A DNA stretch of 64,000 nt from the NCBI GenBank assembly GCA_903901225.1, contig CAIUQE010000020.1:5092-69091 (forward strand), read 5' to 3'. This document shows positions 35,462-63,982 of the stretch, piece by piece (position 1 is the stretch's first letter; every line of letters begins with the position of its first letter). This DNA comes from Candidatus Omnitrophota bacterium (lineage in GTDB: Bacteria; Omnitrophota; Gorgyraeia; Zapsychrales; Fredricksoniimonadaceae). The notes beneath the pieces were generated by a model. That model ran no database searches. It was given only the letters and a program-made list of their open reading frames with translations, and had not been told where the DNA came from. Made by a program: the position numbers and the translations under genes.

Positions 35462-38398
35462 TTACCTGGCTGCCTCAAAGAACGATCGCGGATCATTTAA
35501 AGTTGTTACGCCAAGAACAACCGGCGTGAAACCATCGATCCGTTCTTCGAGCATCGCGGCATCAATGCCAATGTTAAAATTTATCTTCCCGCCAGTTTCC
35601 AGAAGGCGAAGCTTATCAGAATTAAGATCAATACCACCGTTCAAATTATTGGCATCAACGACTGTTTCACTATGCTGCGGCGTTGCGATCTTATTCTTTG
35701 CTCCTCTTCCCCAGACATGTTTTCCAGTTTTAAATTTTATTTCATCAAGATAACTCTCATCACTTGGTCCAGAAAATCTTATCCCGAACGCATTCGACAA
35801 TGCCTGGATCATATTGATTTTCTTTCTTTTCAGATGCGCGCCCGTGCTGCAGCTCTCGGCTATACCTTTGGCATCGGCCTTGACGAATTTGCTTAACATC
35901 CCCGAAGTCAACCGCCGATCCTCCGTTCGCAACGTTTCATCACCATAGTGCCCGAAGTCAATGGACCAGGGATTACCGTGCCCGCCAATGATCACAAACG
36001 ACGCCGGCTCCTTCCCATCCCCCGTTGCGTCAATAAAAGCATCGACCATTTCCTTGACAGAAGCCACTTCATAATACAGGACTGAATAGCCTTCTTTGAT
36101 CAATTGATCGATCGCCGATTCCCTCATAAATGCGGCATTCCGGTCTGATTTGGGATAAATAACAACAGCCCTTCCTTTCGGGGCTTGGGGGGTTGTCGTC
36201 ATTAATTTGTGCTGTAGTTTTCCGGCACTGGCCTGACGGTTATTAAAGCGATTGATCACGCGATTGATGAACAAATGCGATCTGATCTGCGCCGGCCAGG
36301 CTAACGGACGAAGAATATTTAACTCTTGCCAGTGGCCATACTGCAGCAACCTTTGCCATATATTGAAGCCATCTTTCTCCGATCTTTTTGCCAGCTCAAA
36401 CACCAACAATGAAAGTCTTTCTCTAAAATTATCCGTGCCGGATTTAACCCTGTCAGGTGGAGTCGTGCGCGGGAACATGCGCTCAAATTCATATTTAATC
36501 TCATCCATCCCAAAACGTGCATCTCGTATCAATTCTCCCCGATTGTAATACCTTGCGTATACATTCAGATTATTCATAAGATAATTTTTGGCCTCGTCAC
36601 TGCCCGCGTCAACCAAGGCATCCAATATGCGAATCGCCTTCTCCTGACTCAACCTATCTTTAGCAGCATGACTGACAATCCAACCCAAAGACCCAACTTC
36701 CCGAAAAGTTTTATTCCTGAGGGCATTCCTTCCTAATACCTCTATCACAGCATCTCGCGTCTTGCTTTCCAACCGATCCCATATTGAATTTCCATGATAA
36801 CTCAATAGAAAGCCAAGACCATACAACACGTTTTCATCGTTTTCCCTGGCATACTGGAACAACTCACGCGCGATCTCTACAGGAATGTGCCCACGGGAAT
36901 ACATACGTTCTAAATATGAATCAGCTACATCAACTCCCTTTGACACAAGACTGGCCAAAGCCCTAGTGATCAACACCCTGTGCTGACCATGAATGACTAT
37001 GCCCAGATGAAGAATCTCTGAGGCTATGCTCGTGTTGTTCTTACTAATTGCAGGATCTATAATCCCCTGAACATCAGGATCCTGGTACAGACTTAATAGC
37101 GCTGATACGATCTGCGGCGCAAGGCCAGGGCGACCTCTTCCCAAACTTATAAGCGCGTCCACAGTTTCGTAACTGTGGGCTCCTCGCATCAATGCCAGCA
37201 CTTCAGGAGCGTCAATCGAAGGAAATTTAAATCCCGAGGTCCGGCTTCCCGAAACAGGATCAAACTCAACCTCGGCGACTACATTTTTCCCGATATTCTT
37301 TTGCGCCGCATCAACCATCGCCCGGCCAGAAACCCGTTCTTCTTTGACCATCGCCGGGTCATGATGAAACCCGCCGGAGAAATATTTCCGGGGGATGATT
37401 TCCGAGGTTGTTTCATCCTTCTCTTCCTTGATGTAATTAAAAACACCTTTCCGAAACGCCTCCTCATACTGTTGCCAAATCTTGTCCTTGACCTTTTTAT
37501 CCGCCAGGTCAATCCCCGTCACCTTGTTCTTTGCCGCATATACCTGGCCGACCAGGCTCCGCTTCAAGTTGCGCTTGAACCACGTCGACAGGATCATGGC
37601 GTGATAGATCTGCCGCAACGTGCCAAAGTTTTCGCCGTTGTTGACCTCTTTCTCGATCTCAGGCAGAACGATCTCACGCATGACCTGCCGGGGAATGCCC
37701 CTGGCCTCAGCGAAGCCGTCCCGGGCTTTAGAATTATCGGAGTTCTTCCTCATGGACGTGTAATCAGTATCCAGCATGACCTTCAGGTGACTTTTCGCGA
37801 TAAATGCCGTATCGCCGTTCACATAGACAACCGCCTCATCCGGAACGATCCACACCTTGTTAAAAGTATCCAGCGGTATATCCGTCGTGCCGTATTTTTC
37901 AAAAACACGGGCGTAAATTTTCTTCCATACCTCACGGCCCAACGCCTTTTCGGGATACATCATCGATGAGGTCAATTGCTTGAGGATATAATCTTCGGCC
38001 AGAAGATCACGCCCCATTTCCGTAAGGCCAAAGTTGTCCGGGATGATCCTGTCGCCTTCATAAGGAGACAAATTCACCCAAAGCTCATCCTCCGGGACCG
38101 TCAAGGCAGCCAGAAAATACCTGATCAACCTGGTCGATTCCTGTTGCAACGGCACCCCCTGAAGGGCGGAATTTCCGGTATCAATAAGAAAATCAAAGCG
38201 TAATTGATCGGCAGGATAAACTTTCATGCCCTTAAGGACCGCTGGCACGAATGAAACGCTTGGGGTAACCATTGTGCCCGGTTGAGGCAGGATCCTCTCA
38301 CCTGCAACCATCTGGGCATATGACGGCGGGACGCTGGCGGTTATGAAGGCCACCAGCATGAATGACGCGATTACTCTTTTAGTGATTTCTTCCATCAT
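35462..38398 (-). CDS. large secreted protein (978 aa), unknown function; C-terminal region with a His-Gly...Cys arrangement reminiscent of clan-CD cysteine peptidases
   Basis: Signal peptide (FITASVPPSYAQ). Markedly lower GC than the surroundings. C-terminal ASFVIIGGHGNPW ... AESCSTG. No other motif recognised. Confidence 0.45.
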   Translation of the reverse strand: MMEEITKRVIASFMLVAFITASVPPSYAQMVAGERILPQPGTMVTPSVSFVPAVLKGMKVYPADQLRFDFLIDTGNSALQGVPLQQESTRLIRYFLAALTVPEDELWVNLSPYEGDRIIPDNFGLTEMGRDLLAEDYILKQLTSSMMYPEKALGREVWKKIYARVFEKYGTTDIPLDTFNKVWIVPDEAVVYVNGDTAFIAKSHLKVMLDTDYTSMRKNSDNSKARDGFAEARGIPRQVMREIVLPEIEKEVNNGENFGTLRQIYHAMILSTWFKRNLKRSLVGQVYAAKNKVTGIDLADKKVKDKIWQQYEEAFRKGVFNYIKEEKDETTSEIIPRKYFSGGFHHDPAMVKEERVSGRAMVDAAQKNIGKNVVAEVEFDPVSGSRTSGFKFPSIDAPEVLALMRGAHSYETVDALISLGRGRPGLAPQIVSALLSLYQDPDVQGIIDPAISKNNTSIASEILHLGIVIHGQHRVLITRALASLVSKGVDVADSYLERMYSRGHIPVEIARELFQYARENDENVLYGLGFLLSYHGNSIWDRLESKTRDAVIEVLGRNALRNKTFREVGSLGWIVSHAAKDRLSQEKAIRILDALVDAGSDEAKNYLMNNLNVYARYYNRGELIRDARFGMDEIKYEFERMFPRTTPPDRVKSGTDNFRERLSLLVFELAKRSEKDGFNIWQRLLQYGHWQELNILRPLAWPAQIRSHLFINRVINRFNNRQASAGKLQHKLMTTTPQAPKGRAVVIYPKSDRNAAFMRESAIDQLIKEGYSVLYYEVASVKEMVDAFIDATGDGKEPASFVIIGGHGNPWSIDFGHYGDETLRTEDRRLTSGMLSKFVKADAKGIAESCSTGAHLKRKKINMIQALSNAFGIRFSGPSDESYLDEIKFKTGKHVWGRGAKNKIATPQHSETVVDANNLNGGIDLNSDKLRLLETGGKINFNIGIDAAMLEERIDGFTPVVLGVTTLNDPRSFFEAAR

Positions 38399-41715: not shown

Positions 41716-44238
41716 CTAGAATCTTTTTTCGTAAGTGAGCCGGACCATGTGCTGCGTGGAAAGCACCGGCGCCGCGTAATATCCCAACAGAGGATTGGTC
41801 GTCGATGTGTCAACGAAATAGACCGGCCCCACGCCGAACTGCAGCGAGAACGTATTGTCCTTGGGCGCGATATAGCGGCTTTCCAGGAAAACATTGTGGT
41901 AATAACGATAATCCAGGACTTTATCCTTGTTGAACCGGTTAAGGTCATACCCCCGCGACAACGTGTACCGGGCGAAGAACCCGAGGCTTTTCGTCGGCAC
42001 CACGCTGGTCTCAAACCCGAAATGGTCCATGTTGTCGTCGATATTGCCCGCGAAACCGTTGGGGTTGCGCGTGTAATCGAAATACAGGTCCCAGATATTC
42101 GCCGGGCGAAGGTGCAGGCCGGTCTTGAAAATATTATGATAATCATACGGCGACTGGGGCAGGTAACCCTGGTCATACAGCCACGGCATGGGCCCGCGGT
42201 AAAGACGCCCGTTCTGGACGTACGTCTGCGTGCTCATACCGTCAAAAAGGCCGCGCGGGAAATTGTCCTCGGCAAGCGTGAGGTCATTGCTGTATTCCCA
42301 AACACCGTTGACATCCGCCCACTCGGTCAGCTGGTAACGCGCGCCGAGCGTCCCCGTCTCCAGGTTCCTTTTGTCACCGCCGGGGATCGCGTTATTGACC
42401 AGCGGCAGGCCCGTGTCATTGTTGGTGACGAACGGGTCCTCGTTCATGCGTGTCCGTGGCATCCCGTGCCAGAGGGCCAACCCCTCGAGCGTCAATTCAT
42501 CGGTCGTCTTCCAGGTCCATTCTGTCCGCGCCACGTTCTCGATCGTGTTATTCGCGTTGGTCGTCACATGGCGAAAATCGGCCATGCCTTCCACTTTTCC
42601 GTCAAATAAGAGCGTGTCCGCGCGCGCGCCGGCCACATCGCGGCCAATGTCGATCCCGTTGCCGAGCGCGAAAGCTTCCTGGTCCGACTCCGACATCGTG
42701 GCTTTGGCCCCCGGCATCTTGCGGTACAACGACGGATAAAATGTCAAATGCCGGCTCCAGAACGCGTCATCACGGGTCTTGTGATAATTCGACAGCGTCG
42801 ATTCGAACCCTCTGTCCATCCGGGCAAAAAAGAGCTTGCCCTTGTAAAGCGACCCGCCCTCCATCGTCCGCTGGGACATGTAATCTTTCTTCAGGAGGTC
42901 GACAGCATTGGAGATCGCTTCGATGGACGCAAAATACGCTTGCCCCTCTTCCTTGGTGCGGTAGGTATGGTTGCTCCAGTCGTTATGGCTGACCGAGGAA
43001 CTCACCTGCGCCTGCGCCTTGACGCCGTCAACGGGAACGATCGCCGTGTCCGTGCTGGCGACATAATTCTGCTCATCGACCCTCTTGTCAACAAAACCAA
43101 GGTGCATGTTGCCGGTCCCGCCGATATAAGCATTGTCGCCGAGGTACTGCTTGACGCGCAGGCTGCCCGGAACGGCGGTCACCTCGTTATAATCCTGCCA
43201 CAGCGTCTTGGGCGAAGCCACGGTGGCCTGGATCGTCGTGTCCTCCCCGGGATGCGCGTCGAGCGCCACGCCGCGCAGGGCGGTCAAGTGCGTCCCATCG
43301 CTGTCACGGGTCGCGAACGCAAGGCCACTGTCCCAGTACCCCTTGGAAAAATCCTCCGGCAGGGCGGTCAGGTGATTGACCTGCCCGCCGCGCCAGTCAT
43401 TCAGCCACGGGCTTGCTTCCCACCAGGTCTTGTTATTGGAAAGCCTCAACGGGTCATCACTGGTCAGCGCCTGGTCCTGGTAAGCCATGGGGAATATCCG
43501 TATCTTCCCGGCATCCCCCGGCTTGATGTCGACCCAGAACTCGCGCACGGGCTGGAAGGTAGTTTTCACCTTCATATCCGGCGTGCTGAAAGAATCGCAC
43601 TGCCCCCACTGGTTGCAGATCGTGGAAGCCATGGAAGCCGCGGGAACGGTACTGTTCTTGACCTTGAGCTCAGGCAGGGCCAGCACCCCCGCGTAAGTCA
43701 GGGTGTTGACCGAATGGTTGATCGTGTAACCGTTGTTGCCCCAGAACAAATGCTGGACCCGCGCGGTGTCGCCCCAGGCGCTGGTCACGTCCATGGTGCC
43801 GGTCCTGCCCGTATAGCTCCACGGGTCAACGGTCACGTTCAGGTGCATGCCGACGGCATCCTGGACCGCCGCGTCAACAACCACCTTGATCCGCGAATAT
43901 ATCGCCGGGTCATAGGTGTTCTGGTAGTTGTTCAGCTGGGCGCCGGAAAGGATGCGGAAATTCCGCTCGTTAAGGTCGGCGCTGGCGCGGGTAAAAACAG
44001 CGCCGTCGTTGGTATTGAACCCCACCGCGGCATGCAGCTCGCCGGACATCTTGACCTTCACGGGAAGTTTGGCAGAACGCAGCACTCCCGCCCCCTGCTC
44101 GAAAGTGTCCATGACGGAATTGACGATGGACGCGCGCAGTTCATCAAGTTCATTGTATTCCTGGGCCGGCGCCAAGCGCGCGCCCAGGAGCAGGATGAAC
44201 CCGCAGCACACCCATGATCTCAACGTGATTTTACGCAT
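41716..44238 (-). CDS. large outer-membrane protein (840 aa), unknown function
   Basis: Signal peptide (LGARLAPAQE), abundant amphipathic Y/W/N/G/T-rich segments, C-terminal ...LTYEKRF. Confidence 0.5.
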   Translation of the reverse strand: MRKITLRSWVCCGFILLLGARLAPAQEYNELDELRASIVNSVMDTFEQGAGVLRSAKLPVKVKMSGELHAAVGFNTNDGAVFTRASADLNERNFRILSGAQLNNYQNTYDPAIYSRIKVVVDAAVQDAVGMHLNVTVDPWSYTGRTGTMDVTSAWGDTARVQHLFWGNNGYTINHSVNTLTYAGVLALPELKVKNSTVPAASMASTICNQWGQCDSFSTPDMKVKTTFQPVREFWVDIKPGDAGKIRIFPMAYQDQALTSDDPLRLSNNKTWWEASPWLNDWRGGQVNHLTALPEDFSKGYWDSGLAFATRDSDGTHLTALRGVALDAHPGEDTTIQATVASPKTLWQDYNEVTAVPGSLRVKQYLGDNAYIGGTGNMHLGFVDKRVDEQNYVASTDTAIVPVDGVKAQAQVSSSVSHNDWSNHTYRTKEEGQAYFASIEAISNAVDLLKKDYMSQRTMEGGSLYKGKLFFARMDRGFESTLSNYHKTRDDAFWSRHLTFYPSLYRKMPGAKATMSESDQEAFALGNGIDIGRDVAGARADTLLFDGKVEGMADFRHVTTNANNTIENVARTEWTWKTTDELTLEGLALWHGMPRTRMNEDPFVTNNDTGLPLVNNAIPGGDKRNLETGTLGARYQLTEWADVNGVWEYSNDLTLAEDNFPRGLFDGMSTQTYVQNGRLYRGPMPWLYDQGYLPQSPYDYHNIFKTGLHLRPANIWDLYFDYTRNPNGFAGNIDDNMDHFGFETSVVPTKSLGFFARYTLSRGYDLNRFNKDKVLDYRYYHNVFLESRYIAPKDNTFSLQFGVGPVYFVDTSTTNPLLGYYAAPVLSTQHMVRLTYEKRF

Positions 44239-52948: not shown

Positions 52949-53227
52949 TCAATTTTGCTTCAAGAATCGTTTTACATCCTCGTGATTACCCGCAAGCAGG
53001 AACTCCGCCAGGTCCCCCTCCCAACGGAACAGGATCCTGACTTTCAGCCCGTAACGAACTTCCCAAAAATTGTTTTTCAGGCGCTTCAGACCAAGTCCCT
53101 GGTAAATTTCCCTGTCTTTGGATAATACTTCGATAAGCTGGCTGGCCGCTGACTTGACGTCGGCTTTATCATGCAAAGGCAATTGCTTGATCGAACGGTC
53201 AAATGAAGGTTTAAACTCAAATCTCAT
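52949..53227 (-). CDS. type II toxin, RelE/ParE superfamily
   Basis: 92-aa basic protein with the RelE/ParE-like secondary pattern; overlaps the upstream antitoxin by 4 nt; low GC. Confidence 0.6.
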   Translation of the reverse strand: MRFEFKPSFDRSIKQLPLHDKADVKSAASQLIEVLSKDREIYQGLGLKRLKNNFWEVRYGLKVRILFRWEGDLAEFLLAGNHEDVKRFLKQN

Positions 53228-53487
53228 AATCCGGCAAGATGTGCCTTCGCGGCTTCATCATATGAAAAAACCTTGCCCTTGGCTGATGCCAATTTTTCGA
53301 TCTTCTGCCACTCACTGGAAGTGTAGGGTGATCGCGCGGTCACTTCGCACGGCATGAGCATGATGCCGTCTTTACTAACGCCAAAGGCGACCGAAGAACC
53401 CTCTTGCAAATGTAAAAGCTTACGGATCCGGTTAGGGATCGTGACCTGCCCCTTGGTGGTCATTTTTGCCGTTTCAATAATGGTCAT
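53224..53487 (-). CDS. type II antitoxin, AbrB/MazE/SpoVT-type (looped-hinge helix)
   Basis: N-terminal TTKGQVTIPNRIRKLL is the AbrB-like swapped-hairpin DNA-binding motif. Confidence 0.6.
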   Translation of the reverse strand: MTIIETAKMTTKGQVTIPNRIRKLLHLQEGSSVAFGVSKDGIMLMPCEVTARSPYTSSEWQKIEKLASAKGKVFSYDEAAKAHLAGL

Positions 53488-57263: not shown

Positions 57264-57491
57264 ATGTTAAAGCTACTGCCACTTTTAATGCTGATCATGA
57301 CCGCCGCGTGCGCGACCCTCTGGGTCGACAACGCGCGCGCTGAATCTGTCACATTCGATCTGAGCGTCGTGCTCCCGCCTCACGTGGTGACACCCGCGGC
57401 CGGCGTGGCCGTCGCCGCCCAGAGCATCCAGCAGCAGGCAGCGGTGCGCGACAATGCACCGGTATTGATCCAGTCTGTCGTTGTCCTCTAA
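57264..57491 (+). CDS. small secreted/lipoprotein-like hypothetical (75 aa)
   Basis: Hydrophobic N-terminus with AAC lipobox-like segment; weak RBS. ORF only. Confidence 0.25.
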   Translation: MLKLLPLLMLIMTAACATLWVDNARAESVTFDLSVVLPPHVVTPAAGVAVAAQSIQQQAAVRDNAPVLIQSVVVL

Positions 57492-60490
57492 GATCTCCCC
57501 TGGTTTTCCGAAGACGTTGCCGCCACTTTCCTTTTCACGGGTATGTGGAACGTATACGTCGTGCCTTCCGTGATATTGATCCCGTTGCGCAATTTGACGA
57601 GCGGGATCACATCCTGCGGCATGGTGACCATATCCAGCGTGATAACATGCGCGCCGGCGGGAACATTCTTGAAGAAATACGCCCCCTGGCCGCCGCTGAC
57701 CTGGGACAACTTGCCGTCCAGGATGACTTTGACCCGGCCGACGAACTCATCACCGGCATCAGGCGTATTGTTGCCGTTCTTGTCCACAAAGACCACACCG
57801 AAGATCCCCGACTCCATCCTCAACCCGAAATCAGCCCGCTGGCGCAAGCCCTGGCGCACATCAACCCGCGCCAGCGCGGGCGTTGAAAAGACAAATCCCG
57901 TCGGCAGGTTTTCCATCACAGGCGTCACGGCAACCCTTTTCGCGCGCACATCCATGTGATACCAGCCGTGGGCATCGGTGACGGTCTCATTATCGCCCAC
58001 CTTCACCTTCACATCGGGCACACCTTCATCGGAACGGTCATAGCGGCCATTGCCATCCTTGTCTTTGAACACGATGCCTTCGACCACCCCCGCCGGGTCC
58101 CAGCGCACGGGCGTGCCCCAGGCCGCGCGCATCCCCAGGCGCAGGTCCAGGTCATTGTACGACGGCGACCCCGTGACCTTGCCCCAGGCGTCGCGCGAAC
58201 GGCCGTCGAAGAAAAGGCTCACGTCGCTCGACTGATTGTAGGTGAGGCCGACCGAACCGTCAACGCTGTCTTCACCCGAAAGGAAACTGTTGCCGCCGCC
58301 GGCCCCTTCCTCCTTGCGGTAAGAGAGGCCGAAACTGCCGTTCAATTTAGCGGTCAGCTTCCTGTTCAACGTCAACCCCGTGGTCAGCACATTGGGCTGG
58401 TAGTCCATGCCGGAATACGGCTCATGCAGCCGGGAAATTTCATAATTCGCCGTCCAGGCAAGGTCCGGCGTCAACGGCAACTGGACCCCCGTCAGCACGC
58501 CCGCGCGGTCATAATCCGACGCCGACGCGACCTGGTAGCGGTTGCGCTGGCCTGAAACTCCCGCGTAGCCCGACCCGCGGCGGCCGTGCCATACCCCGAA
58601 AGACCGCGTCACGCGGGACATTCCGGACACATACTGCCGCGGTGAAATATCGCCGGGCGTATCCGTGTAATTGACATTCGTGTTGAGGCTGTAAGTTTCG
58701 TTGATCGGGACATTGACGCCCGCGCTCGTGTCATAATTGTACGCCTGCGGCCGGTCCGGATTGAAAATGACGCGATTGCGGTACGCCTCCACCGACGTGG
58801 TGATGCCCGCCTTGGGCAGGTCCGTGTCCGTGGTCCACACCGCGCCGATATCGCCCTGGTTGGACGCGCTGCTGGTCACCGTCGTAAAATCCTTGTTAAT
58901 GTCACGGAACTTCACGCCCGTCCTGAAAATGCCCCCGTCCCACTGCGCGCCGGCCAGCGAGGCCGTCGTGCGGTCATCGCGCGCCAGCTCCCCGTCAAGC
59001 GTGACCGCGGCAAGCTTCTGCGTGCCGCTGACGGAATAAACATCTTTCGTGAGCAAGGGGTCGCGGCCCGCGCCCGAAGCGGCGGCGTAATTGAACGCGT
59101 AATGTTTCTGGGGATCGCCGGGGAACAGCGTCACTCTCCCCGCGTCGATCTCGACATCCTTCATCGTGCCCGTGCCGAAAGAATAAAACCCGAACGTGGA
59201 TTCCTGCTGCCCGTGCACGGCGTAAAGCCCCACCTTGTTATCCAGGACATTGGCCCCGGCACTCACGCCCCGCAATGGCGAGCCCGGCAAGGTCAGCGGC
59301 GTCAGCGCCCCGTTCACGTCAAAGAGCCGTATATTGAAATTCGTGACGGCCGGGGCGGGAATGCCACTCAGCCCAACGGTATACGCGACGACGTTGACCA
59401 GCGGCTGCAGGCCGACCGTGCTGGCGGAGGCGTCAAAGAACCCGTACGGCGTTTCGCCTTCCATCCCGAAATTCTGCTGCGAGCTAAGGCTTTGCCGGCG
59501 CAGGTAGGTGGCCGTGTTCCCGCGATAATACGAACCCCAGTCGGTCGAATACCGCAGGCGGAAAGGCTCGGCATGTTCCACGGTTGCGGACTGTTTGAGA
59601 ACGCCACCCTCGGGCTGCGGCAGGACCACGTCGATGTAAACAGTATGCCGGGCCAGCGCTCCCGTCGACTCGTCCCAGATATGCAGGAAGGTGCCGCCCC
59701 AGCGCCGGGATTCGACCTGGAGCTGGTCGCGCGTCACTTTCCGGGCCAGGATCGCCGTTTCATCGAGCACCAGGAACCTCTGGATATTTTTTCCCTCAAT
59801 GATAACAGAGGTGCCGGTCTGCAGTTTGATCGACGCCCGGCCGCCCTGGCTGGCCGCCAGGATATCACTGAGCTCGATCACATCGGCAGAACCTGCTGTT
59901 TTTTTAGAAAGCGAAGGGACCGAAGGCAGGCGGGCCACCGGCGGACCCATGGCCACGCTTGCCGTAGGGGCTGCCTTAACCGGCGCGTTAACCGCGACCG
60001 GCCCTGCCCGCGGCTGGAACTTGTCCAATGCCGCGGTAACAGCGCCCTCCCGGTCAACGATCGGCGAAGCATCCTCCCTGGCCTGCTTCACCATTTGCAG
60101 GTACTTTAAAGGTTCTTCGGAGTCGCGGTCAAAAAGGTGCGCGGTATAAAAATGATCCGCCGCCGATTCATAATTCTTCCCGGCCAGCGCGGCCTTGCCC
60201 TTGCGCATGAGTTCCTCAAAATAAGGGGCAAAGGACTTGGGCGTAGCGGCAGCCTGCTGGCGCGCGTTCAACATGTCAATGTAACGTGATGGTTCTTCCG
60301 CGGAAGGGTCGAGCTGGTGCGCCCAGGACAGATAACGGGCAGCTTCTTCATCTTCATGCTGTCCAAAGGCTTTGATGCCTGCGTTAAGGTAATACTGATA
60401 AACGTGTGCTGGCTCGGCGGCAATCGCGGGGAATGCCCGGAGCGTTCCAAGGAGAATGCCAAGAACGCATATCACCCGTTTTTTCATCAT
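57488..60490 (-). CDS. large secreted outer-membrane-associated protein (1000 aa): N-terminal TPR-like segment, central beta-rich region, C-terminal Cna-B/SdrD-B-like (carboxypeptidase-regulatory-like) repeats
   Basis: Signal peptide; repeated FKDKDGNGRYD / FVDKNGNNTPD motifs typical of Cna-B/SdrD-B-type beta-sandwich repeats; first gene downstream of the chaperone-like gene. Confidence 0.45.
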   Translation of the reverse strand: MMKKRVICVLGILLGTLRAFPAIAAEPAHVYQYYLNAGIKAFGQHEDEEAARYLSWAHQLDPSAEEPSRYIDMLNARQQAAATPKSFAPYFEELMRKGKAALAGKNYESAADHFYTAHLFDRDSEEPLKYLQMVKQAREDASPIVDREGAVTAALDKFQPRAGPVAVNAPVKAAPTASVAMGPPVARLPSVPSLSKKTAGSADVIELSDILAASQGGRASIKLQTGTSVIIEGKNIQRFLVLDETAILARKVTRDQLQVESRRWGGTFLHIWDESTGALARHTVYIDVVLPQPEGGVLKQSATVEHAEPFRLRYSTDWGSYYRGNTATYLRRQSLSSQQNFGMEGETPYGFFDASASTVGLQPLVNVVAYTVGLSGIPAPAVTNFNIRLFDVNGALTPLTLPGSPLRGVSAGANVLDNKVGLYAVHGQQESTFGFYSFGTGTMKDVEIDAGRVTLFPGDPQKHYAFNYAAASGAGRDPLLTKDVYSVSGTQKLAAVTLDGELARDDRTTASLAGAQWDGGIFRTGVKFRDINKDFTTVTSSASNQGDIGAVWTTDTDLPKAGITTSVEAYRNRVIFNPDRPQAYNYDTSAGVNVPINETYSLNTNVNYTDTPGDISPRQYVSGMSRVTRSFGVWHGRRGSGYAGVSGQRNRYQVASASDYDRAGVLTGVQLPLTPDLAWTANYEISRLHEPYSGMDYQPNVLTTGLTLNRKLTAKLNGSFGLSYRKEEGAGGGNSFLSGEDSVDGSVGLTYNQSSDVSLFFDGRSRDAWGKVTGSPSYNDLDLRLGMRAAWGTPVRWDPAGVVEGIVFKDKDGNGRYDRSDEGVPDVKVKVGDNETVTDAHGWYHMDVRAKRVAVTPVMENLPTGFVFSTPALARVDVRQGLRQRADFGLRMESGIFGVVFVDKNGNNTPDAGDEFVGRVKVILDGKLSQVSGGQGAYFFKNVPAGAHVITLDMVTMPQDVIPLVKLRNGINITEGTTYTFHIPVKRKVAATSSENQGRS

Positions 60491-60525
60491 AAATATCTAC
60501 ACTCAAGGAAACCGCGCCGGAACCT

Positions 60526-61326
60526 TCAATCCTTGACGGCCGTGATCACGGCCCCCGCGGCGCTGTTCGTGAACTCTATTTCCTTGACGATGACATCACC
60601 CTCCTCAAGATCGGCGTTCAGGACCAGGGAATACCTGCCATCCTTGAGCTCTTTGGGCAAATTCAGCGTGAATGGCGCCGACGCCCCGGGCGGAAGGTAC
60701 AATTTCTGCACTTCGCCGCGATCGACCGCCATGCCCGCCTCATCCATCACGTAAAATGTGATGTGCGGGATCATGACCGCGTCGCCGCGATCGACAAAAT
60801 TCCCGGAAAGCTTGCCGCCTTCGATCTTGAAGTCCGTCAACGCCGCGCTCTTGTCCTTATCCCTGGCTTCGATGAAGAACAAGGTGCCGGTGCGCGTCAC
60901 AATGGTCACGCCCGTCCTCATGTCCCTCACCGGCTCGCCGGACTTCTCAAAGAACAAGGCGCCGTAATGCCCGCCCTTGATATCCGCGGGCACACTCACA
61001 GTATACTCGATCTTCTGCTTGCTGAAAGCGGGTAATTTGAATTCCTGCGGCGCGTAACTGACCCAGGCGCTCGCGGAACCGGGGACCGTCCCGGCGGGAA
61101 GGAACGCTTTGGAGCCGTCGTAGGGCGCCTCGTAGCGGAAATCCTCCCAGTAGACCTTGACCCCCACATCCGCGCCCGTGGTGTTATGGATCGTGATGCT
61201 TTTGTTGACGCGCTCACCGCCGGCCACAGGCAGGACGACCTTGCCTTCCTCGATCATGAACTGGGCCGCGGCGGGCCTGACGCCAAGGCACAGCAGGAAC
61301 AAAGCAACAGCGATATTTTTCAGCAT
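60526..61326 (-). CDS. secreted two-domain beta-sandwich protein, candidate periplasmic pilus-assembly chaperone-like
   Basis: Signal peptide; ~240-aa mature size; position between putative subunit genes and the large OM protein. No diagnostic motif confirmed. Confidence 0.3.
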   Translation of the reverse strand: MLKNIAVALFLLCLGVRPAAAQFMIEEGKVVLPVAGGERVNKSITIHNTTGADVGVKVYWEDFRYEAPYDGSKAFLPAGTVPGSASAWVSYAPQEFKLPAFSKQKIEYTVSVPADIKGGHYGALFFEKSGEPVRDMRTGVTIVTRTGTLFFIEARDKDKSAALTDFKIEGGKLSGNFVDRGDAVMIPHITFYVMDEAGMAVDRGEVQKLYLPPGASAPFTLNLPKELKDGRYSLVLNADLEEGDVIVKEIEFTNSAAGAVITAVKD

Positions 61327-61351
61327 ACCCGTCCTTGTGTGTTACAGAGGC

Positions 61352-61948
61352 TCATTGCACCGTCGATGTCACGGTCAGCGTTCCCGTGTAAGCCCCGGGC
61401 GTGTCCGCGTTCGTGAACGGCTCGGCGCCCGCCACGACCGGGAACCCCCGGTAGATCCCCAGCGCGATATCGAGCGAATCACCGCCCAGCTCGGCCGGCG
61501 TCACCGTCACAAGGCCGATGTCCTTGAGCGCCTGCGACGGGTGGGATGCCATCAGGTTTTGCTGGCCCGTGGCCGTCAGGCGCGTGAACGTCAGCACGAC
61601 CTTCGCCCCCAGCGCGTGATTCTGGTTCCCGTTGGGGTTGGCGCCTTCCTTGTAAGACACCGTGACGTTGGGGCTCACCCCCTGGACCGCGGCCACCGTG
61701 ATATAAAAATACGAGGGCGCGTACCAGACCTGGTTCTGCCCGTCATAGAGCAGCGTGCCGAAATCGAACAGCACGTCATTGAGGAGCTGCGCGCTGCCGC
61801 CGGTGACCTTGTAAGCGGACATCGTCGTGCCGCTCACGGTGGGGACAAAGGCCGTGGCCATGAACAACTGGCTGTCAGCCCTCGCCGCCACCGCCTGCAG
61901 GCAGAGCACTCCCGCGATCAGAACAAAACGAAAGAACGATCTCATCAT
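61352..61948 (-). CDS. secreted beta-rich protein, candidate fimbrial/pilin-like subunit (paralog of next)
   Basis: Signal peptide; C-terminal ...GAEPFTNADTPGAYTGTLTVTSTVQ aligns with ...GAEGFTNADVPGAYTGKVTITATAT of the next ORF. Confidence 0.35.
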   Translation of the reverse strand: MMRSFFRFVLIAGVLCLQAVAARADSQLFMATAFVPTVSGTTMSAYKVTGGSAQLLNDVLFDFGTLLYDGQNQVWYAPSYFYITVAAVQGVSPNVTVSYKEGANPNGNQNHALGAKVVLTFTRLTATGQQNLMASHPSQALKDIGLVTVTPAELGGDSLDIALGIYRGFPVVAGAEPFTNADTPGAYTGTLTVTSTVQ

Positions 61949-61957
61949 GCCTCAGCC

Positions 61958-62587
61958 TCAGGTCGCGGTCGCCGTGATGGTCACCTTGCCCGTATACGCC
62001 CCGGGCACATCCGCGTTCGTGAACCCTTCGGCGCCGGTCACCGCCGGGCTTCCCGTGTAAACACCCAGATAGACCCGGCACCAACCCCCGGTCAGCGTGG
62101 CCGAGGTGATGCTCGTGCCCGCGGCCAGCGTGGCCAGCGGCTTGTTCCAGATCAGCGATTCGGTCGGATTCTGCGCGACGCCGCCCACCGGGGCATTGAA
62201 TGTTTCTTTATTGGCCGACGCGACCACCTTGACGCCCAGGCTCTTCGTGGCCCCGGTCGGTTTATTCCCTTCCGTGTACGATATGGACACGGTCGGCGAA
62301 CCCGCGGCGAGGTTGGAAATGTCAACCGCGAAGAACTGGCTGCCCAGCCACATATTGACCGGCTTGGCCACGGTCCCGGGGGTCCATACGAGGTCCCCGA
62401 AATCCATGTTCAAATCCGGGAGCGTCGACGCGGACCACACACCTGCCGCCGTGATCGAATGCGCCACGATGCTCACGCCCGACGAGGGCGGGAGGTTGGT
62501 GCTCAGCGCGTAATCCACCGCGCCCGCCGTTCCCGCCTGGGCGAGGATAACTATACCTGTTAAAAGCAAGCTTAACATCCGTTTCAT
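61958..62587 (-). CDS. secreted beta-rich protein, candidate fimbrial/pilin-like subunit
   Basis: Paralog of 61352-61948; signal peptide. Confidence 0.35.
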   Translation of the reverse strand: MKRMLSLLLTGIVILAQAGTAGAVDYALSTNLPPSSGVSIVAHSITAAGVWSASTLPDLNMDFGDLVWTPGTVAKPVNMWLGSQFFAVDISNLAAGSPTVSISYTEGNKPTGATKSLGVKVVASANKETFNAPVGGVAQNPTESLIWNKPLATLAAGTSITSATLTGGWCRVYLGVYTGSPAVTGAEGFTNADVPGAYTGKVTITATAT

Positions 62588-62602
62588 GTCCTTCTCCTTT
62601 TT

Positions 62603-63982
62603 TTAATTCTGATTCACCGAAAACCTTATCGGAGCCGCGTAATTGCCTCCGCTCATTTGGGTATAACCCTGCAACCTGTAGACAACCTTGAACCGCGCCG
62701 GATCCCCCTGGCTGTCCGAAGAGAACACCGGATACTCGCCGACCTGCATCGGGGCGAATTCCGGGAACTTCGTATGGCCCCTGCCGCCGGGCGCGACCTG
62801 AACCTGGAACGTGAAATACTCCTTCTTCACCTCACTGCCTTTTTCATTCGCCAGCGCCGACGCCAGACCCTGCGTCACCTGGTAGGGCTTGCGCAGGTTG
62901 GTACGGACCGTCACCGTCACTTCCTTCTCCACCGGCGGGCTGATGGGCAGGACATTGGCAAAACTGACGCCTTCCGGCGGGAACGCCATATCCATCGCGA
63001 AAACCGGCGGCACCTCACATTCAAGGTCGATCGGGAATTCCTGGCGCGCGTCATCCGTTTCCACCGTGAACTTCATCTTCGCCGCATAAAGGCCGGCCGC
63101 CTGCAAAGGGCCTTTCACCGGGTCCATCATGAAATACACAAGAAAATCATCGGCCGGCTTTGGGGCTGAATAAATGAGCGTCTTCGCGCGCGCGATCGGC
63201 GAGGGGTCAACCACCCGTATCCCCTGGCCCGAACTGCCCGCGGCAAAGAACCTCACCGCGTCGGCGGCGATCTCCTGCGCGGCCGCGTCCTGCGGCAAAT
63301 TTTCAAACTCCTGGTAAACCCTGACCTCTTTGCCCATATTCCCTGAAAAAGAAACCTTCACGAAATCCGCGGTCTTGTCCGTCGTGTCAATGTCCTTGAT
63401 ATGCACGCGCCCCGCCAGTTTGCCGCCCGTGACCGAAGTTTTCCAATCCGCGGTGCTGTCGAGATAAACGTTCATCAGCACCTGGTCCTGGTTGCCGCCG
63501 CCGGCGGACCTGACCGTAAAAGCGAGCTTGCCCGAAAAATTCCCCGCCGCGTTCATAAGGTCGGGCCGGACCGCGTAAGCGATGGTGAACGCGTCACTCT
63601 CGCCGCCACGGCCTGACGTATACACCAGCTGGTCGCTGAACGTGAGGCCCTCGGCATTCTGCAAGTACAGGGTCCCCGCGCTGTTGGACCCGAGCGCCGC
63701 GGCCGTTTCAATGGCCTTGAGATCCAGCGTTTCGCCTTTTTCATTCACCACAGGCTCAACAACCCGTTGAAAGACCTGGTACTGGGTGCCGCCGTCCGAC
63801 GATACGCGGATGCGCAACTCCTTTTTATTGTCCAGACCGGAAACAACACGCCCCAAACGCAAGGCATTGCTGCCATCCACAGAATTGACAACCAGGTTCA
63901 AGGTCGCGGAAAAAGCCGACCCCTGGCCCAGAAAGAATAAAATGACCAAAAAAAACACTGATTTCATCATATTTCGCCGCAT
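62603..63982 (-). CDS. secreted hypothetical protein (459 aa), first gene of the surface-structure-like operon (candidate tip/adhesin-like component)
   Basis: Signal peptide (LGQGSAFSA); no motif recognised; operon position only. Confidence 0.3.
   Translation of the reverse strand: MRRNMMKSVFFLVILFFLGQGSAFSATLNLVVNSVDGSNALRLGRVVSGLDNKKELRIRVSSDGGTQYQVFQRVVEPVVNEKGETLDLKAIETAAALGSNSAGTLYLQNAEGLTFSDQLVYTSGRGGESDAFTIAYAVRPDLMNAAGNFSGKLAFTVRSAGGGNQDQVLMNVYLDSTADWKTSVTGGKLAGRVHIKDIDTTDKTADFVKVSFSGNMGKEVRVYQEFENLPQDAAAQEIAADAVRFFAAGSSGQGIRVVDPSPIARAKTLIYSAPKPADDFLVYFMMDPVKGPLQAAGLYAAKMKFTVETDDARQEFPIDLECEVPPVFAMDMAFPPEGVSFANVLPISPPVEKEVTVTVRTNLRKPYQVTQGLASALANEKGSEVKKEYFTFQVQVAPGGRGHTKFPEFAPMQVGEYPVFSSDSQGDPARFKVVYRLQGYTQMSGGNYAAPIRFSVNQN

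Follow-up and report, generated by a model that had tools for sequence, protein, structure and literature searches.

A conserved six-gene cassette of Omnitrophota that probably encodes a very divergent chaperone-usher-type system for surface fibers

Close to the end of a 64,000-nucleotide (nt) stretch of DNA from a Candidatus Omnitrophota bacterium (contig CAIUQE010000020.1 of assembly GCA_903901225.1, positions 5,092 to 69,091; hereafter the window), six genes designated A to F form a cassette that probably encodes a very divergent chaperone-usher-type machine assembling a surface fiber. The cassette comprises a lead protein of three tandem domains (A), two small pilin-like paralogs (B and C, members of a family referred to as S), a predicted periplasmic chaperone (D), a large outer-membrane protein of predicted usher-like design (E) and a convergently encoded mini-protein (F). 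The genes for the putative subunits, chaperone and usher are clustered in one operon of conserved order with gaps of 9-35 nt (15, 9, 25 and 35 nt for A-B, B-C, C-D and D-E, respectively, according to the listing of open reading frames, ORFs), and the stop codons of E and F overlap. The original prediction for this locus, which was made from the sequence alone, had proposed five co-directional ORFs with signal peptides at 57488-63982, and the ORF listing reproduced these limits exactly, while a hydropathy scan supported the signal peptides. It had also seen a loose parallel to chaperone-usher systems, for which the fold of D, its profile similarity to EcpB and the usher-like fold of E now speak, while gene F, the triple repeat of A and the affinity of D for WxLIP proteins are points beyond it.

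All six products A to F are exported via the Sec pathway: each carries a basic N-terminus, a hydrophobic core (Kyte-Doolittle values of 2.5-3.6) and a small-x-small cleavage site. The hydropathy scan revealed no transmembrane-like segment after the signal peptide in any of A to F, and a motif scan found no W-x-L motif in A, B, C, D, E or F. In Pfam searches of A to E, the sole solid match was SdrD_B in E (6.3e-9, two stretches), which also showed weak matches to T2SS-T3SS_pil_N and TPR; A, B and C remained without match, and D gave noise only (E≤1). None of the cassette components is named in Pfam or NCBIfam, and no connection between Omnitrophota and chaperone-usher pili was found in the literature searched, in line with the earlier proposal of an undescribed system.

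The cassette recurs far more often than expected by chance; its gene order was seen again at 55 loci on other contigs. When one genome for each GTDB species was scanned for the pattern, 53 loci emerged, and all their ORFs were classified by iterated hidden Markov models (HMMs) before gene order was counted. By title, 39 of these loci belong to Candidatus Omnitrophota/Omnitrophica and one to Candidatus Aceula meridiana, while the 13 titles reading 'uncultured Planctomycetales' are taken to be mislabelled. The order A-S(1-3)-D-E followed by a reversed F is kept in about 50 independent loci of Omnitrophota metagenome-assembled genomes at protein identities of 19-50%, so that the conservation of the neighborhood across genomes, which had been named as a check on the prediction, could be established. 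Among the loci with enough flank, 42 of 46 have D directly upstream of E, 45 of 45 have an S gene, and 39 of 40 have A ahead of S-D-E. The site and direction of F are unchanged in 49 of all 53 loci, including four in which F overlaps the 3' end of E. The number of S copies per locus varies from 1 to 3. Two loci, L044 (4224-7500) and L047 (7302-10600), contain extra S-D pairs (S-D-S-D) between E and F, and D is duplicated in tandem in L040, L042 and L043. The co-duplication of S and D argues for a specific pairing of the two. Since the flanking genes vary among loci, the cassette itself constitutes the conserved unit; the flanking neighbors of the window cassette are common to the metagenomic locus L001 only. 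Word-indexed searches retrieved 17 relatives of E, 62 of D and 5 of C. Some of the D relatives are labelled Candidatus Omnitrophica, and one was labelled 'PapD' by the Joint Genome Institute. The cassette is most likely specific to Omnitrophota and close relatives. One genome holds, in addition to an intact copy (L035), a second copy split into many short ORFs (L048, 4994-11270, CAVYLG010000006.1), which reflects either pseudogenization or frameshift errors of a long-read assembly.

D ties the cassette to known chaperones by both fold and profile. Its AlphaFold2 model, built from 39 sequences with a predicted local distance difference test score (pLDDT) of 94.1, comprises two β-sandwich domains and ends in a β-strand at residue 266. 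A Foldseek search of this model against the PDB returned WxLIP of Enterococcus faecium first (9i25_C and 9i1y, 6e-13), followed by CfaA, Caf1M, FimC, SafB, EcpB, YadV, CsuC and DraB at 1e-10 to 1e-7. The Foldseek probability was 1.00 for CfaA, Caf1M, FimC, SafB, EcpB, CsuC and DraB, and the template modeling score (TM-score) by target length (TMt) reached up to 0.67 for pilus chaperones of all classes. With regard to sequence, phmmer searches of D and of E against PDB sequences gave nothing useful, and the best PDB match of the D profile was EcpB at 0.087. Alignment by hhalign with seven E. coli chaperones extended over 203 columns and both domains (Prob 67%, E=5e-5). Using the D profile, HMMER collected 211 clusters at ≤1e-30, 2,836 at ≤1e-10 and 8,668 at ≤1e-3 from 1.84 billion cluster representatives. 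Distant relatives among these match the Pfam families WxLIP_PGBD and WxLIP_HBD, with P0220 (35.7 bits) and P0244 (29.5 bits) above the gathering score, and D itself reaches WxLIP_PGBD no better than at E=0.13. A broadened profile of 74 sequences that includes distant WxLIP-matching members (A7) recovered EcpB at 7.7e-6 as well as EfmWxLIP1 at 1.6e-3, the latter over residues 24-264 and thus nearly full length. Judged by its fold and by the hhalign, HMMER and A7 results, D is a member of a large DUF916/WxLIP-like superfamily that is, by sequence profile, detectably related to a genuine chaperone of the chaperone-usher pathway, too. This indicates membership with WxLIP at the level of the superfamily, not of the family.

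The basic cleft residues of PapD are R8 and K112. In the alignment with the E. coli chaperones, K29 of D, which is conserved in at least 90% of its family, aligns with FimC R8, N48 aligns with a conserved Asn, and R145 in the G1-like strand lies two residues off FimC K112. R145 is invariant in profile A1 and near-invariant in A7, and it aligns with the Arg of 'ARIG' in EcpB and the Arg of 'NRIA' in WxLIP. The model shows D as a putative soluble, periplasmic chaperone of two immunoglobulin-like (Ig) domains that profile comparisons link to EcpB and WxLIP, and in its modelled fold it corresponds to the two-Ig-domain periplasmic chaperone of PapD fold in the chaperone-usher pathway. Of the ~240-aa two-domain chaperone that had been predicted, the two-Ig PapD-type fold and the match to the EcpB profile hold, whereas the protein measures 266 aa (~245 mature). 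The PapD HMM search suggested as a check was negative at E≤1, with neither PapD_N nor PapD_C (PF00345/PF02753) matching D in Pfam. D carries no membrane anchor: the maximal hydropathy over 19 residues past the signal peptide is 1.12, and the C-terminal transmembrane helix of WxLIP proteins is absent. BasC was rejected as an identity for D (NCBIfam, 19 bits versus a cut-off of 260).

The putative subunits are characterized by their terminal strands. As paralogs, B and C are 32% identical along their whole length (E=3e-28) and share the C-terminal sequence GAExFTNADxPGAYTGxxTxTxT, just as two ~200-aa paralogs with a conserved C-terminal strand had been foreseen. Both are members of the S family (profile A3, 60 sequences), in which a strand with the consensus F-T-V-S-A-T-V-P directly follows the signal peptide, and which further has an L-x-F-G motif and the C-terminal strand G-x-Y-T-G-T-L-T-x-T. 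G185 and Y187 (numbering of gene C) are invariant in 60/60 members. Word searches found five close homologs of C only, hence the S family evolves fast. The resemblance to spore-coat-U-like subunits, also part of the original prediction, goes no further than the C-terminal strand motif of DUF4402, which matches S in 2/60 members over the last strand only (best 20.5 bits versus a cut-off of 25.2); in one of the 60 members, the match covers DUF4402 positions 99-128 of 129 (E=7.8e-4). SCPU (PF05229) had no matches among the 60 members, and none of the DUF4402 matches rose above the gathering score. More generally, the C-terminal G-x-Y-x-G-x-h-x-h-T strand of the subunits resembles that of DUF4402 and the type-1 pilin strand. 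No match emerged when S was compared by hhalign with 12 E. coli type-1-family pilins. Two other candidates were set aside: Fab light chains, which the S profile met in the PDB via the signal peptide and a 'SLSASVG'-like stretch, and a match of DUF2574 (YehE) on one S member that lies over the signal-peptide region.

The lead protein A consists of three tandem ~140-aa domains that are recognizable as repeats by internal hhalign (E=5e-20, 4e-25 and 1e-15), and every domain closes with the strand aG-x-Y-x-x-x-I-x-F-[ST]-[VL]. The A family (45 sequences) has no Pfam or PDB sequence match among the matches listed. The C-terminal 62 residues of domain 3 align with the 12 E. coli type-1-family pilins at an hhalign Prob of 39%, which is suggestive only. 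Direct comparison of S with the A domains without signal peptides was weak (E about 2e-3), and a figure of 88% for S and A was rejected since it was inflated by the signal peptide. A connection is provided by L063_193, the protein at the S position of the distant cassette L063. Without its signal peptide, it matches the S profile (Prob 97%, 1e-10) as well as A domain 3 (96%, 4e-9). Because this protein bridges both, S and A share one domain. A is a candidate tip or adhesin, or a pre-linked multi-subunit.

E is the candidate for the outer-membrane conduit. Its AlphaFold2 model was built from 17 sequences. A Foldseek search with this model against the PDB placed ushers (FimD/PapC) at all of the 13 best positions (1.4e-18 to 3e-8), namely ten full-length structures at 1.4e-18 to 7.5e-14 with ~800 aligned columns and three structures of the translocation pore only at 3e-9 to 3e-8. 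TonB-dependent receptors and porins followed at 1e-7 to 1e-6, so that full-length ushers beat the best TonB-dependent receptor (~2e-7) by 6-11 orders of E-value. Ushers combine a periplasmic N-domain, a large barrel of 24 strands and two C-terminal sandwiches, and the model of E shows the corresponding layout with a barrel of about 26 strands. The expected 1000-aa protein with N-terminal TPR and C-terminal SdrD_B units was borne out by Pfam (6.3e-9) and by the 52-sequence E profile A8, which retrieved from the PDB only TPR proteins (1e-35) and the B domains of SdrD (2.7e-9) and UafA. The weak match to PF13629 is also found, as a precomputed match, in the E relatives P0002, P0007, P0008 and P0017. 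Pfam detected no TonB plug, Secretin or synthase domain in E. The motif GETPYGxFD (residues 345-353, nt 59432-59458) hardly varies among 52 E homologs whose identity is otherwise 19-50%; located in an early barrel hairpin of the model, it could be a gating or plug-like element.

In the smallest component, F (MLKLL...ARA/ESVTFDLSVVLPPHV...RDNAPVLIQSVVVL), the signal peptide precedes an N-terminal strand like that of S (SVTFDLSVVLPP), which a stretch of low complexity links to a C-terminal β-hairpin (RDNAPVLIQSVVVL). A small convergent gene after E also occurs in L001, L002 and most other loci, and Omnitrophota F proteins have a mature length of ~50-65 aa and a conserved C-terminal hairpin. A strict version of the N-terminal strand motif, [FY]x[VILA][ST][AVC][TSK][VIL]P, was detected in 20/51 F and 18/60 S proteins, as opposed to 0/3306 other ORFs of the same loci. 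In L063, the position and orientation of F are taken by a gene for a complete domain of A type (Prob 95.6% and 1.2e-8 against A domain 3). We infer that F is a pared-down subunit that keeps the terminal strands; given the weak hhalign match of mature F to mature S (E=1.8e-3 over 26 residues), its reading as a minimized subunit stays at this level. F is thus a candidate minimal subunit that might serve as terminator, anchor or cap. The yeh chaperone-usher operon of E. coli K-12 also has a tiny secreted protein, YehE (DUF2574, 93 aa; L059, 6516-6797), a possible loose parallel to F.

PapD-type chaperones capture pilins by β-strand complementation, and a similar sequence of events can be proposed for the cassette. 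After A to F have crossed the inner membrane via Sec, D would capture the S subunits B and C as well as the three-domain A in the periplasm by β-strand complementation. E would form a large monomeric barrel in the outer membrane, with the N-terminal TPR and pil_N parts and the two C-terminal sandwiches on the periplasmic side. There, it might recruit the D:subunit complexes, whereby TPR and pil_N would play the part of the usher N-domain and the SdrD_B sandwiches that of the two usher C-terminal domains (CTD1/2). E may then catalyze a strand exchange in which the N-terminal strand of the following subunit (FxVSATVP) displaces that of D, and the growing fiber would leave via the barrel, with A as a putative tip or adhesin module. 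Having a strand to donate and no accepting domain, F could cap, terminate or anchor the fiber, and it is conceivably under separate regulation, with expression from its own promoter.

Several points weigh against such an assembly machine. The E model is of moderate quality (pLDDT 72, predicted TM-score 0.45), and its TM-scores to ushers are low (0.26-0.43), hence the match to ushers rests on local 3Di similarity and domain order, not on a rigid superposition. PF00577 (Usher) was not matched by E in the Pfam search, hhalign of the E families A2 and A8 (17 and 52 sequences) against five E. coli ushers resulted in Prob values of 0.2% and 0.6%, and ushers are absent among the PDB matches of A8. 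As the hhalign comparison is not significant, homology is not claimed, and the resemblance is confined to the fold level. E is thus usher-like in its modelled design, but membership in the usher family is undemonstrable; the earlier statement that the large protein does not look like a canonical usher is borne out for its sequence, yet FimD and PapC lead its fold matches. The plug domain of ushers sits between barrel strands 6 and 7. A DSSP map of the E model shows only regular hairpins with strands of 8-17 residues and no evident inserted plug (~80 aa), which suggests that a plug is absent or may be supplied by another domain. In addition, the 60-sequence S profile has no significant match in Pfam or the PDB, and D is equally close to WxLIP and to pilus chaperones. 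Finally, the gene order of the cassette is unlike that of typical chaperone-usher operons, which start with the major subunit and end with the adhesin.

A more far-reaching view, possible although rather doubtful, regards the cassette as a third deep branch of strand-complementation systems, between the chaperone-usher pili of Gram-negative and the WxL/Csc complexes of Gram-positive bacteria, that would combine a DUF916-type chaperone superfamily, interchangeable conduits and one pilin-like domain into a phylum-wide organelle. In such a third branch, the conduit would be an usher-like monomeric barrel, resulting from independent origin or extreme divergence, and a secretin in some relatives. 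The pilin-like domain would be present once in S, three times in A and cut to its terminal strands in F (a donor-strand-only terminator or anchor), and the fiber would be an attachment organelle relevant to the host-dependent lifestyle of Omnitrophota.

The closeness of D to WxLIP proteins could also be taken at face value, with the cassette encoding a non-polymerizing surface complex as the diderm counterpart of the WxL/Csc clusters. D would then permanently bind S and A and stabilize them by inserting a strand, and E would export or anchor them at the outer membrane to form an adhesive coat. We consider this rather unlikely. The best fold match of D is indeed WxLIP (6e-13), its relatives P0220 and P0244 reach the gathering score of Pfam WxLIP_PGBD, and A7 aligns nearly all of EfmWxLIP1. 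F could be likened to CscD, a tiny extra LPXTG protein of Csc clusters. WxLIP proteins are not known to build fibers, nor WxL systems to polymerize. The make-up of the cassette parallels that of the published WxL clusters, which combine a small client, a large multi-domain client and a DUF916 protein (PMC10599100). However, D lacks the C-terminal transmembrane helix of WxLIP, neither S nor A contains a W-x-L motif, and PF13731 is absent among the Pfam matches listed for the window proteins (E≤1) and for the 60 S and 45 A family members. Moreover, the predicted usher-like barrel of ~26 strands with its two C-terminal sandwiches exceeds the needs of an anchor, and the N-terminal strand common to S and F suits an exchange between subunits. 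No link of WxL or DUF916 to donor-strand or chaperone-usher biology was found in the literature searched.

It is improbable that the fiber self-assembles in an uncatalyzed manner by the donor strands of its subunits, similar to TasA fibers or archaeal threads and cannulae, with D and E required for export and quality control only. Chaperone-free donor-strand filaments exist, and the missing sequence similarity of E to ushers would fit such a scenario. Yet, D and E strictly adjoin the subunits in nearly all loci, and S-D pairs co-duplicate, which together points to a chaperone and a pore devoted to these subunits. In a diderm cell, an outer-membrane conduit would be required in any case. The least convincing option, that E serves in uptake or export as a channel without relation to fibers (TonB-dependent/SusC-like, or an exporter of the BcsC/PgaA/AlgE type) with A, S and D as accessory binders, could draw on the TonB-dependent receptors and porins among its fold matches (1e-7 to 1e-6), on N-terminal TPR repeats as in BcsC and PgaA, and on the CarboxypepD_reg-like domains that occur in SusC-type proteins, but it has very little probability considering that the E-values of full-length ushers are better than those of TonB-dependent receptors by 6 orders of magnitude or more, that BcsC, PgaA and AlgE are not in the best 50 fold matches, that E is devoid of TonB plug, Secretin and synthase Pfam domains, that no synthase or glycosyltransferase adjoins the cassette on its downstream side (the upstream side being the window end) and flanks vary between loci, and that E is conserved together with a chaperone-fold protein and pilin-like proteins. 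Transporter and polysaccharide-exporter readings are hence unlikely, and a very divergent chaperone-usher-type machine is the reading preferred here.

The bacteria of the phylum Omnitrophota are ultra-small, have not been cultured and apparently depend on hosts. As their attachment gear, the main comparative study of the phylum names only type IVa and Tad pili and giant ORFs (PMC10066038). If the fiber reading is true, the cassette would represent a further conserved surface-fiber system, common across Omnitrophota, that has been missed by standard annotation, and a candidate for host attachment. The significant tie of D to both EcpB and WxLIP suggests that PapD-type chaperones and WxLIP proteins form one strand-donating superfamily and provides a testable hypothesis for WxLIP function, and E would show the usher design in a lineage without detectable usher sequence similarity, whether by extreme divergence or by convergence. 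The 2,836 clusters of the D profile at ≤1e-10, some of which are paired with secretins, suggest a family of systems that is far larger and still uncharted.

The positions of the cassette genes and of the predicted domains of A and E are compiled in Table 1. Downstream of the cassette, the window encodes a YgiQ-type radical SAM protein, an ABC-F ATPase and a two-component system. Elsewhere in the window, two overlapping ORFs of 92 and 87 aa at 52949-53487 (minus strand) look toxin-antitoxin-like by eye only, with an AbrB/SpoVT-type 'KGQVTIP' N-terminus in the 87-aa ORF and a RelE/ParE-like appearance of the 92-aa ORF. Two large ORFs at 35462-38398 (978 aa) and 41716-44238 (840 aa), both on the minus strand, have no Pfam match at E≤1e-5.

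Table 1. Genes of the cassette and predicted domains of A and E in the window.
Feature	Position (nt)	Strand	Length or residues	Description	Basis
Gene A	62603-63982	minus	459 aa	lead protein	ORF listing, signal peptide
A domain 1	63488-63904	minus	residues ~27-165	first tandem domain	
A domain 2	63029-63487	minus	residues 166-318	second tandem domain	
A domain 3	62606-63028	minus	residues 319-459	third tandem domain	
Gene B	61958-62587	minus	209 aa	small subunit paralog S1, pilin-like	ORF listing, signal peptide
Gene C	61352-61948	minus	198 aa	small subunit paralog S2, pilin-like	ORF listing
Gene D	60526-61326	minus	266 aa (~245 mature)	periplasmic two-Ig-domain chaperone-like protein, WxLIP (DUF916/DUF3324) / PapD-like fold	
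Gene E	57488-60490	minus	1000 aa	usher-like outer-membrane protein	Pfam, AlphaFold2 model, Foldseek
E signal peptide	60419-60490	minus			
E TPR helices	60071-60412	minus	residues 27-140		Pfam, model
E linker			residues 141-201	predicted disordered	model
E pil_N-like domain	59624-59884		residues 203-289	predicted β domain	model; weak PF13629 match at 220-284
E barrel	58118-59563		residues 310-791	predicted, about 26 β-strands	AlphaFold2 strand map
E first sandwich	57815-58093		residues 800-892	SdrD_B-type β-sandwich	Pfam, model
E second sandwich	57521-57808		residues 895-990	SdrD_B-type β-sandwich	Pfam, model
Gene F	57264-57491	plus	75 aa	convergent with E	plausible start at 57264

Among known systems, chaperone-usher pili (Fim/Pap, CFA/I, Ecp and Csu/CupE) display the same operon logic, with small subunits, a multi-domain subunit, a two-Ig chaperone and an outer-membrane barrel. 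D of the cassette is similar to CfaA, Caf1M, FimC, CsuC and EcpB in both fold and profile, E resembles FimD/PapC in the modelled order of N-domain, barrel and two C-terminal sandwiches, and the C-terminal G-x-Y...T strand is present in the cassette subunits. In contrast to these pili, the cassette has no significant match to PF00577, PapD_N/C, fimbrial, SCPU or DUF4402 families among the matches listed. Furthermore, E contains TPR, a CpaC-type pil_N and Ca-loop SdrD_B C-domains in its model without an evident plug, and the triple-domain lead gene, the conserved convergent F and the distribution in Omnitrophota set the cassette apart.

The second point of reference is the WxL/Csc clusters of Firmicutes, whose WxLIP proteins (DUF916 plus DUF3324; PDB 9i25, 9i1y) are closest to D in fold and are linked to it by profile. 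They show the same mix of small and large clients as the cassette. According to a published prediction, WxLIP contributes one of its strands to close the β-sandwich of its WxL client (PMC10599100), and this insertion of a strand into a client follows the same principle as donor-strand complementation. On the other hand, D is without C-terminal transmembrane helix, and the cassette clients are without WxL domain or motif. While WxL systems bind peptidoglycan, the host of the cassette is a diderm with a dedicated outer-membrane barrel, as judged from the model of E.

With the DUF4402/SCPU pilin-like proteins, S shares the N-terminal strand after the signal peptide, the L-x-F-G motif and the C-terminal G-x-Y-x-G-x-h-T-h-T strand, although the matches of S to PF14352 are below the gathering score and extend over the last 30 profile positions, and PF05229 has none. 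The weak match to pil_N (PF13629) at residues 220-284 of E recalls the N-terminal part of Tad and T2SS secretins; unlike these, E has no Secretin domain (PF00263), and the model gives its membrane part the form of a monomeric barrel with ~26 strands. TPR-barrel exporters such as BcsC, PgaA, AlgE and PelB differ by barrels of 16-18 strands and an adjoining synthase or glycosyltransferase, as compared with ~26 predicted strands in E and unrelated housekeeping neighbors, and none of the four is in the best 50 fold matches of E.

Relatives of D also occur in other settings. In L064 (2282-5667), L065 (2077-5462) and L067 (181-4327), tandem-duplicated D-like proteins of 524-566 aa with WxLIP_PGBD matches are followed by a true secretin (PF00263), and L064 additionally contains another D-like gene (305 aa) and encodes a protein of 216 aa that has GTYAASVNMTIINQ at its end. 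The location of D-like genes beside secretins suggests that this chaperone superfamily is coupled to different outer-membrane conduits. L061 (4278-10600; Ca. Fraserbacteria, DRJF01000114.1) and L062 harbor three small subunit-like genes with C-termini such as YAVTVVYTLSAP, then a D-like protein fused to a dockerin, and then a 965-aa SdrD_B/PKD protein that resembles E in the C-terminal sandwiches only. On the preferred reading, the cassette would combine chaperone-usher logic with a chaperone of WxLIP lineage, a sequence-orphan usher-like barrel extended by TPR and pil_N modules, a triple-domain lead subunit and a conserved mini-subunit.

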